Shown here piece by piece: positions 24,658 through 24,949 of a stretch of 41,441 bases of DNA. The translations under genes were made by a program, and so were the position numbers. Numbering within the stretch: position 1 is the first letter of the stretch; each line of letters begins with the position of its first letter. Below the pieces are notes generated by a model. The model did not search any database. It was given only the letters and a program-made list of their open reading frames with translations, and was not told the origin of the DNA. The DNA comes from a virus (taxonomy: Duplodnaviria; Heunggongvirae; Uroviricota; Caudoviricetes). The stretch is from IMG/VR virus record IMGVR_UViG_2541047739_000012; one strand, written 5' to 3'.

Positions 24658-24949
24658 AGCCTCACCTCCGCAAATAACGGATGGCGTAGTTTTACACTGA
24701 GAAATGAAAGAGATTTGAAAAGAAAAAACCGCAAAAGCGGGCGAAACGATATATACAGAAAGGAAAGCACTCTATCCAACAAACCACCCACAGTTGATCG
24801 GAATAAAAGCAGAGTGCTTATGAATGATCGCCTGCCCGAAGGTTAGTATTTCTGCACAGCAATTTTGCAAAAAAAGGCGATCATTCATAACTTAAACGTC
24901 TTTCAGTCACTCCGGGATTTCCCATCATCGCAGACTGAAAGACTCTGAC

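Follow-up and report, generated by a model that had tools for sequence, protein, structure and literature searches.

A conserved, covarying RNA in the trailer of a tRNA cassette between the Q and holin genes of a lambdoid prophage

In the prophage DNA analyzed here (41,441 nucleotides; the window hereafter), a short interval rich in inverted repeats separates an array of four tRNA genes from the lysis cassette, which raises the question of whether it belongs to the control region of the late operon, to the end of the tRNA operon, or to something else. An earlier note on this DNA, made from the sequence alone, described the interval as a stack of stem-loops and offered two readings, namely, a late promoter followed immediately by a Q-antiterminated terminator, and the 3'-end and processing signals of the tRNA operon. 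The latter reading agrees with the analysis, according to which the interval forms the trailer of a tRNA cassette that has a conserved promoter of its own. In addition, the stem-loops are a conserved, covarying RNA family, which the earlier note did not foresee.

The late-operon strand of the prophage is the minus strand, on which the segment 24943-24765 folds into three stem-loops, SL1, SL2 and SL3 (Table 1). The gene for tRNA-Gly ends at 24950 and SL1 starts at 24943, so that the stem-loops lie directly after the last tRNA, on the same strand and ahead of the operon terminator, as expected of a 3' trailer. The tRNA array is also annotated in the RefSeq record of a 99.4% identical prophage, and the assignment of the holin agrees with the annotation in relatives.

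Table 1. Features of the locus, from the Q-proximal to the holin-proximal end.
Feature	Coordinates	Strand	Basis or remark
Candidate PR'/tR' region of the prophage's Q	25376..25469	-	94-nt block common to mEp390 and cdtI
Predicted sigma-70 promoter of the tRNA cassette, TTGCAA-17-TATTAT	25269..25297	-	Consensus scan call
tRNA array: Met/Ile2(CAT), Lys(TTT), Thr(TGT), Gly(TCC)	24950..25259	-	ARAGORN, Rfam tRNA, RefSeq annotation
SL1: 11-bp stem, two more pairs and a small inner GGG/CCC hairpin	24898..24943	-	Optional module
SL2: 16-bp outer stem around two hairpins (three-way junction)	24818..24890	-	Inverted repeat search, folding, RNAalifold
SL3: long irregular hairpin	24765..24819	-	Inverted repeat search, folding, alignment
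A/U-rich single-stranded spacer, including the supposed -10 TATATA (24755-24750)	24741..24764	-	Folds
Predicted intrinsic terminator, CCGC-UUUU-GCGG + U6CU4	24718..24740	-	Sequence, folding
S21-type class II holin, first gene of the lysis cassette	24442..24657	-	Pfam PF04971, E = 1.4e-35

All the features listed in the earlier note are present in the DNA. The 11-bp perfect inverted repeat lies at 24898-24908 / 24933-24943, with 24 nt between its arms. The repeat described as having 15 bp and a 43-nt loop also exists, but actually consists of 16 bp (24818-24833 / 24875-24890) with 41 nt between the arms, and the hairpin with a T-run lies where it was said to be, with 65 nt between its end and the holin ATG at 24657. 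Only four perfect inverted repeats in the window reach 11 nt or more with arms no further than 80 nt apart; two of these are the arms of SL1 and SL2, and the 16-mer of SL2 is the longest of the four. SL3, which was missed in the earlier note, occurs once in the window and is formed by pairing of 24811-24819 with 24765-24773; it contains the supposed -35 hexamer of the proposed late promoter. When folded as a single minus-strand RNA of 235 nt, the interval reaches -79.5 kcal/mol (z = -5.2; none of the 200 shuffled sequences folds as well). Folded separately, the stem-loops give z-scores from -4.7 to -5.1 (SL1, -22.5 kcal/mol, z = -4.8; SL2, -29 kcal/mol, z = -5.1; SL3, -20.7 kcal/mol, z = -4.7), so that both repeats whose folding energies the earlier note proposed to calculate are more stable than their shuffles. 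SL2 and the extended SL3 each comprise about 24 stacked pairs. The spacer between SL3 and the terminator is unpaired in all folds, and its sequence and length differ among relatives.

The structure is real, conserved and specific to the minus strand, as can be seen from the comparison with related loci, in which SL2-SL3 is retained with compensatory changes and SL1 is optional. Among 43 distinct sequences of SL2-SL3, 97.9% of the 1753 pair cells hold a standard pair, compared with 33-49% when the partners are slid. The share of G-U pairs, which are valid on one strand only, is 12%, and because of these 216 G-U cells, pairing on the opposite strand would drop to 86.3% of the cells. Ten pairs of SL2-SL3 are altered on both sides; helices 1-3 of SL2 pair in 96-99% of the cells, with six pairs altered on both sides (alignment A2, RNAalifold). 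For SL1, represented by 27 distinct sequences, 96.5% of the cells pair (38-49% with slid partners) and five pairs are altered on both sides. The corresponding values for SL3, in the alignment A4 of 24 sequences that includes both classes of loci, with and without tRNAs, are 91.5% and 34-49%, with six pairs altered on both sides, five of these in the basal helix; since the covariation comes from few clades, all these counts represent few independent events. Against this background of compensated change, loops of 9-19 nt persist without change at 72-80% overall identity. The tract of SL2 that encompasses the 9-nt apical loop, UUUUUGCAAAAUUGCUGUG, is nearly invariant. The G/U-rich 3' strand of SL3, GGGUGGUUUGUUGGAU (24789-24774), also given as GGGUGGUUUGUUGG, is invariant, and the supposed -35 hexamer TTGGAT (24779-24774) is located within it.

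The SL2-SL3 element recurs, with 72-100% identity, in approximately 160 fetched phage, prophage and metagenome loci and is present in 540 of the 5426 complete E. coli genomes, with a median of one copy per genome. Among the carriers are phage HK639, the Shiga-toxin phage phi467, and extraintestinal and avian pathogenic strains of E. coli. A BLAST search against 50,697 phage records detected matches only in four close relatives and in the late region of HK639. A scan of metagenomes added 55 loci, all from the same clades and none more distant; in a scan of genome contigs with a degenerate pattern, 118 of the 120 returned loci were chance matches and the real ones came from Enterobacter hormaechei and Phytobacter ursingii only, so that the taxonomic breadth of the element is poorly sampled. 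In most of the loci, the last tRNA, typically Gly(TCC), lies 0-58 nt upstream of the element. Several loci lack SL1, including four in which SL2 starts 0-2 nt after tRNA-Gly (L106, L154, L075 and L058) and L080. The covariance model found no copy in Lambda_2E9 (the name given in the record), mEp460, SfI, phage 21, mEp390, cdtI or two EPEC prophages; given this absence, the module is accessory and cannot be essential for late expression. None of the carrier records has an annotation that matches SL2-SL3. A search of the whole window against Rfam 15 at gathering thresholds yielded only tRNAs, none of these within 24658-24949, and with E-values up to 10, the segment 24600-25600 gave only tRNAs and weak noise at the tRNA-proximal edge (E = 2.1). 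The element is a conserved structured RNA that has previously escaped annotation.

The tRNA cassette appears to be an autonomous transcription unit. Between the end of the -10 hexamer of its predicted promoter and the first tRNA lie 9 nt, which form a GC-rich discriminator. The motif TTGnnn-17-TAnnnT, at a distance of 9-10 nt from the tRNA when measured from the end of the -10, is retained in 44 of the 46 unique upstream contexts of related arrays, despite 30 different flanks upstream of the -35. At the other end of the cassette, the hairpin and T-run have the shape and position of its terminator, that is, a GC-rich hairpin followed by a U-tract on the transcribed strand, from which termination activity is predicted. 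The stem (24740-24729) has 4 bp and -6.6 kcal/mol and is followed by U6CU4 at 24728-24718; this copy is weakened by a single base change, whereas most relatives have 6 bp and -13.7 kcal/mol. Because of its 4-bp stem, the hairpin was missed by the consensus scan, which requires at least five pairs, but it forms with a probability of 0.97 in the full-length fold of the window copy. In 53 of the 63 unique contexts, the 110 nt downstream of the element contain one or two hairpins with a U-tract, and the terminators flagged in 12 of the 13 representative full-length folds form with probabilities of 0.91-1.00; the terminator sequences are unrelated between clades.

The late promoter that the earlier note placed in the interval, TTGGAT-18-TATATA (24779-24750), exists as a sequence, but the promoter role is not supported, and a late or secondary promoter there, with a short transcript that stops at the hairpin unless Q acts, is highly improbable. 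In favor of such a transcript, hexamer-like sequences and a hairpin with a T-run (24779-24722) indeed occur where they were said to be, and short PR'-tR' transcripts of about 50 nt exist in phage 21. However, the two hexamers, 18 nt apart, match the consensus in three and four of their six bases (7/12), the -10 lacks the final T, and the consensus promoter scan did not call the sequence. Relatives have an unrelated sequence in place of the -10, and what is conserved at the -35 is part of a strand of an RNA helix. A start from this sequence would fall inside the terminator stem, and the interval leaves no room for a sigma-dependent pause or a Q-binding element (QBE). In phage 21 and HK639, the annotated or recognizable PR'/QBE/tR' adjoins Q, upstream of the tRNAs. 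Here, the segment shared with both other same-clade phages examined, as judged by Q, is the block 25469-25376, which is 79-80% identical to mEp390 (locus L336, 2798-2878) and cdtI (locus L338, 108-201), phages with Q proteins 87-88% identical to that of the prophage; in both, the block is conserved downstream of inverted morons. It ends in T7 behind a weak hairpin (-9.0 kcal/mol, z = -0.7) and is the best candidate for the PR'/tR' region of the prophage's Q, a likely placement at the level of the block that draws on sequence comparison. The interval itself is not a promoter. Its terminator would resemble those of lambda 6S RNA, the phage 21 PR'-tR' transcript and StxS in being read through by Q-modified polymerase in a late leader, but unlike those leaders, the interval lacks a usable promoter, a Q-binding element and a sigma-dependent pause element, and the PR'-like block is located 650 nt upstream.

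The most widespread of the three modules is SL3, which also occurs alone, without tRNAs. Twelve such copies were found with the covariance model and a pattern scan; a BLAST search of cultured phages with their consensus gave no match. They sit directly behind PR'-tR' in phages with another Q family, in the order Q (PF06323), TTGCAA-17-CATATT, terminator, SL3, and then morons and a lambda-S-type holin. Ten of the 12 copies have no terminator directly after them and run straight into ORFs. With these contexts included, the element occurs with three kinds of Q gene, and it is found with several holin families.

Taken together, these data are best read as a new accessory RNA module, found in the late leaders of lambdoid phages and in the trailers of tRNA cassettes. 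The analysis shows that the stem-loops exist, are conserved and covary, and it shows which strand is transcribed, how the promoter is spaced and what shape the terminator has; the function of the hairpins is inferred. Our preference, a tentative one, is that an autonomous tRNA cassette within a lambdoid late-operon leader has the interval as its structured 3' trailer, which acts in cis. The conserved promoter would drive the four tRNAs, and the transcript would continue into an RNA of about 230 nt that folds as SL1-SL3 and ends at the intrinsic terminator. In the lysogen, the cassette would be transcribed on its own, processing of the tRNAs by RNase P and RNase E would free the trailer as a discrete structured RNA, and the terminator would keep cassette transcription out of the holin and endolysin genes. 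Upon induction, Q-modified polymerase coming from the PR' region (approximately 25469-25376) would pass tR', the cassette and the terminator, and SL1-SL3 would then belong to the leader of the late mRNA. The hairpins, above all the invariant G/U-rich strand of SL3, may be the recognition module for a trans factor, either an RNase, such as RNase III or RNase E, or an RNA-binding protein, and the module would set the processing and stability of any transcript in which it is present; the lysis mRNA, for instance, might be cleaved off the tRNA part such that protected ends remain. A cis role in transcript fate is suggested by the occurrence of SL3 alone behind PR'-tR', without a terminator in ten of 12 cases. 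A functional parallel would be the hairpins at which RNase III processes polycistronic phage transcripts (T7 R sites, the lambda N-leader, sib), which are likewise long irregular hairpins between functional units of a long phage transcript; by analogy, SL1-SL3 would separate the tRNA and mRNA parts, with protective hairpins at the ends left behind. To our knowledge, RNase III sites do not need invariant sequences of 15-19 nt, and the invariant loop and strand sequences exceed the needs of a simple protective or RNase III hairpin, which speaks against the cis model, as does the tRNA-linked layout (body, A/U spacer, hairpin, U-tail), which is that of Hfq- or ProQ-type sRNAs.

These features would fit a trans-acting RNA, which we consider possible although somewhat doubtful. 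Under this explanation, the trailer (SL1-SL3, or SL2-SL3, with the terminator; approximately 170-230 nt) is an sRNA, sponge or protein decoy made together with the tRNAs in lysogens, whose invariant loops act on host or phage RNAs or proteins, in the manner of the tRNA 3'ETS sRNA, PasD and StxS. The cassette has its own strong-looking promoter and its own terminator, the A/U-rich spacer, terminator hairpin and U-tail follow SL3 in the 53 of 63 contexts mentioned above, and the two long invariant tracts are possible seeds or protein sites. A precedent is 3'ETS-leuZ, reportedly described by Lalaouna and colleagues in 2015 as an sRNA sponge derived from the trailer of the E. coli glyW-cysT-leuZ tRNA operon. 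Like 3'ETS-leuZ, the RNA lies in the 3' external transcribed spacer after the last tRNA, ends at the intrinsic terminator of the operon, and would, by analogy, be freed by tRNA 3' processing. The leuZ spacer is about 50 nt long and has little structure; the RNA described here, in contrast, spans approximately 170-230 nt, has three conserved covarying stem-loops, shows no sequence relation to it, and shares one module, SL3, with loci away from tRNAs. Structured, stable RNAs are also known from the tRNA gene cluster of phage T4 (RNAs C and D, or species 1 and 2), where they are cut out of the same precursor as the tRNAs; the co-transcription of a structured RNA with phage tRNAs is similar, but T4 is virulent, the genome context is different, and no sequence relation is expected. 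In lambdoid prophages, the moron site downstream of PR' carries genes for Hfq-bound sRNAs (PMC4104026), and the sRNAs of this site, PasD/EcOnc13, PasA/PasC, AsxR/AgvB and StxS (PMC8550237, PMC4104026, PMC7547250, preprint 10.64898/2026.05.13.724894), are, like the RNA described here, non-coding RNAs between Q/PR' and the holin. The likeness is greatest for PasD, a terminator-ended sRNA of about 172 nt that is sense to the late operon and lies between Q and holin (PMC8550237). Unlike these sRNAs, the RNA in question belongs to a tRNA cassette that possesses a predicted promoter, and the anti-sRNAs of 51-85 nt have far less structure. The RNA described here is not similar in sequence to PasA, with which PasC is reported to be alignable, or to PasD, and matches no Rfam sRNA family: comparison with PasA, PasD1, PasD2 and two EPEC holin-upstream regions (E2348/69 loci, with coordinates from table S6 of PMC8550237) gave only chance matches of 8-14 nt (E above 2). 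The 16-nt invariant tract has no complement in the window with up to three mismatches, and the SL3-only copies behind tR', mostly without a terminator, fit a leader element better. Slightly less probable, in our estimate, is the more specific proposition that SL2-SL3, and SL3 alone, constitute an undescribed functional RNA family that a specific host or phage factor reads via GGGUGGUUUGUUGG and the SL2 loop, and that acts as a regulator or decoy rather than a passive processing hairpin. Lysogens would produce such an RNA along with the phage tRNAs, and upon induction it would become part of the late leader; it could sequester either an RNA-binding protein or a defence nuclease directed against tRNAs or, alternatively, gate the fate of transcripts that enter the lysis cassette.

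The remaining explanations are less compatible with the data. That the stem-loops are a passive relic, namely, decayed tRNA copies or a structured spacer that hitch-hikes with the cassette, such that only the terminator matters, is unlikely: the location next to the tRNA array, the tRNA-like size of the units (SL2 is 73 nt), the faint resemblance of SL1 to the 3' half of tRNA-Gly, and the facultative nature of the module with its dispensable SL1 would fit, but the helices are maintained by compensatory changes around the invariant loops and SL3 persists in unrelated contexts without tRNAs. The derivation of SL1 from tRNA-Gly was rejected because 27 of 500 shuffles reach an equally high score, so that the similarity lacks significance, and neither ARAGORN nor the Rfam tRNA model recognizes any of the stem-loops. 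Very unlikely is a conditional read-through device, such as a put-like antiterminator, a riboswitch or a T-box-like sensor, that would control passage into the lysis genes. This explanation draws on the position of the stem-loops within a long operon's leader, where one or two terminators follow directly, on the presence of the element in HK639, a phage that uses put RNA, on the proximity of the tRNAs, and on the invariant GGGUGGU, which presumably resembles the core of the T-box sequence. The put RNAs of HK022 and HK639 are similarly paired stem-loops upstream of terminators in lambdoid operon leaders, but they are about 70 nt long and located just downstream of PL and PR, the early promoters (PMC9378689), whereas the element resides in the late leader, has a core of about 135 nt, and shows no BLAST-detectable similarity to put or any other phage region. 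An antiterminator between a constitutive-looking tRNA promoter and the lysis genes would, moreover, express holin and endolysin in lysogens, to their harm. The terminator hairpins form at 0.91 or above where detected, and the 13 representative full-length folds include no conserved alternative pairing between a sensor and the terminator, by which an attenuator or riboswitch was rejected; the unrelated terminator sequences of the different clades, the SL3-only copies with no terminator after them, and the lack of an Rfam riboswitch or T-box match at E-values up to 10 also argue against such a device. Likenesses to the GcvB seed, ops, boxA/boxC, the elemental pause consensus and the T-box core found no support in tests. 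Hardly credible, finally, is a DNA-level site (protein-binding palindromes, a recombination site or the end of a mobile element) or a gene for a 38-aa protein (24888-24772), despite the perfect palindromic arms, the mosaic joints near the cassette and the hypothetical protein annotated under the element in two deposited phage records. The G-U pairs run counter to a DNA-level site, and with a median of one copy per genome, the element is no dispersed repeat. In close relatives, T-run indels of 1-2 nt shift the frame of the ORF, and in HK639 it contains a stop codon, which led to its rejection as a gene; it has no match among PHROGs.

Lambdoid prophages house toxins, tRNAs and regulatory sRNAs between Q and holin, a region that sets the timing at which the genes for lysis and toxins fire. 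To the map of this region, the present analysis adds a conserved, modular, covarying RNA that about one-tenth of the complete E. coli genomes carry without annotation, a dedicated predicted promoter for the phage tRNA cassette, and a predicted terminator just before the lysis genes, which would insulate these genes as long as no Q-modified polymerase passes it. With an action in trans, the RNA would be a new lysogenic-conversion factor; with an action in cis, it would be a new kind of late-leader signal that is independent of the type of Q protein.

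In the window, a lambdoid prophage of E. coli with the late region on the minus strand, the tRNA array and the holin gene are separated by a non-coding stretch within which RefSeq has no annotation. The minus-strand RNA 24949–24715 folds into three stem-loops (SL1–SL3) and a small terminator hairpin (−79.5 kcal/mol, z = −5.2), and SL1, SL2 and SL3 taken singly also fold at low energy (each z about −5). All the features that the note listed in this interval are present, except that the second inverted repeat is 16 bp long rather than 15; a third stem, overlooked there, pairs 24811–24819 with 24765–24773 and encloses the proposed −35 box. 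In the whole window, perfect inverted repeats of 11 nt or more whose arms are no further than 80 nt apart number only four, and two of these are in the interval. The terminator of the window copy is weak (4 bp, −6.6 kcal/mol; 6 bp and −13.7 kcal/mol in the common variant) owing to single-base changes, and it is independently weakened in the near-identical loci L184, L377 and L128, which could mean either that the terminator decays in resident prophages or that leakier read-through is selected for.

Features of the late region and other RNA genes of the window
Feature	Position	Strand	Remark
RusA	27875-27498	minus	
Q	27508-27140	minus	late antiterminator, Pfam family PF06530
Three moron (accessory insert) genes	25556-27104	plus	inverted; between Q and PR'-like block
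94-nt block	25469-25376	minus	candidate PR'/tR'
tRNA promoter TTGCAA-17-TATTAT	25297-25269	minus	same geometry as relatives
Four tRNAs	25259-24950	minus	Met/Ile2-CAT, Lys, Thr, Gly
Non-coding stretch, 292 nt		minus	between tRNA-Gly and holin
Terminator hairpin	24729-24740	minus	weakened
S21-type holin	24657-24442	minus	
DUF1327 protein, then lysozyme, then Rz/Rz1		minus	after holin
IS009 (Rfam)	44-242	minus	other RNA gene
sok antitoxin RNA	30194-30369	minus	other RNA gene
DicF sRNA	35999-36050	plus	other RNA gene
tRNA-Ser(CGA)	40461-40550	minus	other RNA gene

The element is accessory. BLAST finds the 292-nt stretch in 540 of the 5426 complete E. coli genomes, mostly at 95–100% identity, and many E. 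coli genomes carry prophages that are 99% identical across 1.2 kb around the interval. Among phages, four close relatives carry the element, one of them the Shiga-toxin phage phi467, and HK639 has it at 75% identity. Pattern scans of viral and metagenome contigs, together with local BLAST, yield about 160 loci in identity classes from 72 to 100%, and two genome-collection matches add Enterobacter and Phytobacter to the carriers. A covariance model of SL2–SL3 has no match in Lambda_2E9 (the name in the record), mEp460, SfI, phage 21, mEp390, cdtI and two EPEC prophages.

For SL2–SL3 (43 distinct sequences), RNAalifold recovers the five helices of the single-sequence fold, with standard pairs in 97.9% of the 1753 pair cells, compared with 33–49% when the 3' partners are slid by 1–3 columns; for SL1 (27 sequences), the respective values are 96.5% and 38–49%. 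Both sides are changed in ten pairs of SL2–SL3 and in five pairs of SL1, the count of independent covariation events being small because the double changes separate few clades. G-U pairs account for 216 pair cells, and on the opposite strand the paired share would fall to 86.3% of the cells; therefore, the RNA is read in the direction of the late operon. The loops are conserved more strongly than the stems, with UUUUUGCAAAAUUGCUGUG in SL2 and GGGUGGUUUGUUGGAU in SL3 essentially invariant. Variation in the apical helix of SL3 is confined to the 5' strand and always preserves a wobble pair, so that the 3' strand is constrained by more than pairing.

In most loci, the element is located 3' of the last tRNA, usually Gly-TCC, at a distance of 57–58 nt in loci with SL1 and 0–2 nt in those without it. 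Arrays beginning with tRNA-Met(CAT) are preceded by a promoter whose geometry is fixed (TTGCAx, 17 nt, TAT(T/C)AT, then 9–10 nt, mostly GC-rich, up to the tRNA 5' end), which is kept in 44 of the 46 unique contexts, with 30 different sequences upstream of the −35 box. Downstream of the element, one or two hairpin plus U-tract terminators, unrelated in sequence, are found in 53 of the 63 unique contexts, and three of the ten others have point-mutated copies of the terminator seen in the window. The full-length folds of 13 representatives have a flagged terminator in 12 cases (pair probability 0.91–1.00), with no pairing that competes with it. Beyond the terminators are lysis cassettes with different holin families, sometimes after small moron ORFs. 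The conserved promoter, tRNAs, trailer and downstream terminators thus form one unit, a cassette complete in itself that occupies the moron site of the late leader, and the reading of the interval as the 3' end of a tRNA operon is upheld: it is the trailer and terminator of this cassette.

A tandem terminator pair (CCTCGC..GCGAGG-U, then AAGGCTGCC..GGCCTT-U) directly follows the late promoter PR' in mEp390 (L336 2880–2945), and the same CCTCGC/AAGGCTGCC pair is located 3' of the element, downstream of SL3, in the HK639-like loci L191, L166, L123 and L069. The comparison suggests that the cassette of tRNAs and structured RNA is placed between the PR' region and leader terminators that were already there.

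The cassettes also vary internally. In the array Met/Ile2(CAT)-X-Thr(TGT)-Gly(TCC), slot X (25106–25182, minus strand, in the window) is hypervariable among otherwise similar cassettes (e.g. L205, L167, L191, L123, L169), with ARAGORN calls that include Lys(TTT), Arg(TCT), Phe(AAA), Leu(TAA), a TTA anticodon called 'Stop' and odd anticodon loops. One clade (L158, L004, L073, L086, L176) has, between the tRNAs and SL2 and in place of SL1, a membrane-like ORF of ~64 aa with its stop codon ~5 nt short of SL2; L176 has lost SL3 and continues straight into transposase-like ORFs. Chi (GCTGGTGG) occurs at 17 sites in the window (1.4 expected); the minus strand has 15 of these, and one (25339–25346, minus) is 42 nt upstream of the tRNA promoter. 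In other loci, too, several of the unrelated flanks have Chi just upstream of this promoter. This abundance fits the description of Chi-rich lambdoid phages (PMC12315714).

SL3 is also an independent module. A search with the covariance model built on SL2–SL3, followed by a pattern scan, yielded 12 copies in which SL3 stands alone, and these add to the compensatory changes. Five of these are 10–20 nt 3' of a recognizable late promoter and terminator (TTGCAA-17-CATATT, then a GC hairpin and U-tract); the upstream Q gene is confirmed in L011 (family PF06323), and two other such loci have homologous ORFs further upstream. The SL3-only copies lead into moron ORFs and a lambda-S-type holin, and a terminator directly after SL3 is found in only two closely related loci. 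In all, three kinds of Q gene accompany the element.

Phage 21 has its annotated PR', Q-binding element, pause element and terminator tR' directly after Q, upstream of the tRNAs, with a transcript of ~48 nt; HK639 has phage 21-like PR' and tR' at the same place, followed by tRNA remnants, SL1–SL3 and a different terminator. In mEp390 and cdtI, the two closest phages examined from the window's Q clade (Q 87–88% identical), a terminator and then an inverted moron come after Q, and the 94-nt block after the moron is common to both phages and the window, where its 3' end is a weak hairpin with T7. Judging from this comparison, the block is the best candidate for PR'/tR' here, likely with a Q-binding element for the PF06530-type Q. 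The inverted morons directly after Q in mEp390 and cdtI are different. The window has a bidirectional terminator-like GC-rich hairpin, AAACGGCCTAAGGGCCGTTT, at 27104–27123 between the convergent Q and last moron gene, and mEp390 has an annotated terminator at the matching position. The first ORF of the window's inverted moron (293 aa) matches the PADLOC candidate defence family PDC-S42 (E = 4e-27) and phrog_3243, with no Pfam match.

Prophage late-region non-coding RNAs, tRNA-trailer RNAs and phage processing hairpins are known types of objects; for the element RNA itself, no annotation, no Rfam family for any part and no paper was found, with the literature search covering journals open without subscription. 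The structure, strand, conservation and position of the element and the promoter and terminator geometry are established, and the functional readings are proposals from sequence and structure. A role in cis in the fate of the transcript is tentatively favoured because it is the only reading that also fits the SL3-only copies lacking a terminator; the element might direct processing that parts the tRNA portion from the lysis mRNA, with protected ends left behind, or recruit a factor to the late leader. The cassette would be expressed in lysogens, where tRNA processing would free the trailer; the terminator would shield the holin and endolysin genes against the tRNA promoter and would be passed by Q-modified polymerase, and the hairpins would be a recognition module. 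The main rival, a trans-acting stable RNA, is possible if doubtful: the copies linked to tRNAs end in the canonical sRNA 3' module (A/U-rich spacer, terminator hairpin, U-tail), sRNA genes are known at the moron site (PMC4104026), and PasD, an sRNA of 172 nt on the sense strand, is encoded between Q and holin (PMC8550237; preprint 10.64898/2026.05.13.724894). The element has no sequence similarity to PasA or PasD.

A passive relic is improbable. A put-like antiterminator or riboswitch is quite implausible because an antiterminator behind the constitutive-looking promoter would turn on the lysis genes in lysogens and the 13 full-length folds offer no alternative pairing; moreover, put RNAs are ~70-nt elements of early operons (PMC9378689). 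The candidate late promoter that the earlier note placed in the interval (TTGGAT-18-TATATA) is rejected as barely credible: with 7 of 12 matches, it lacks the key final T and is not called by the promoter scan, its −10 box is not conserved among relatives, and its start site would fall within the terminator stem. Least probable of all is a DNA site or a small ORF, the 38-aa ORF over the element being interrupted in close relatives (indels of 1–2 nt) and in HK639 (a stop codon), with no PHROG match.
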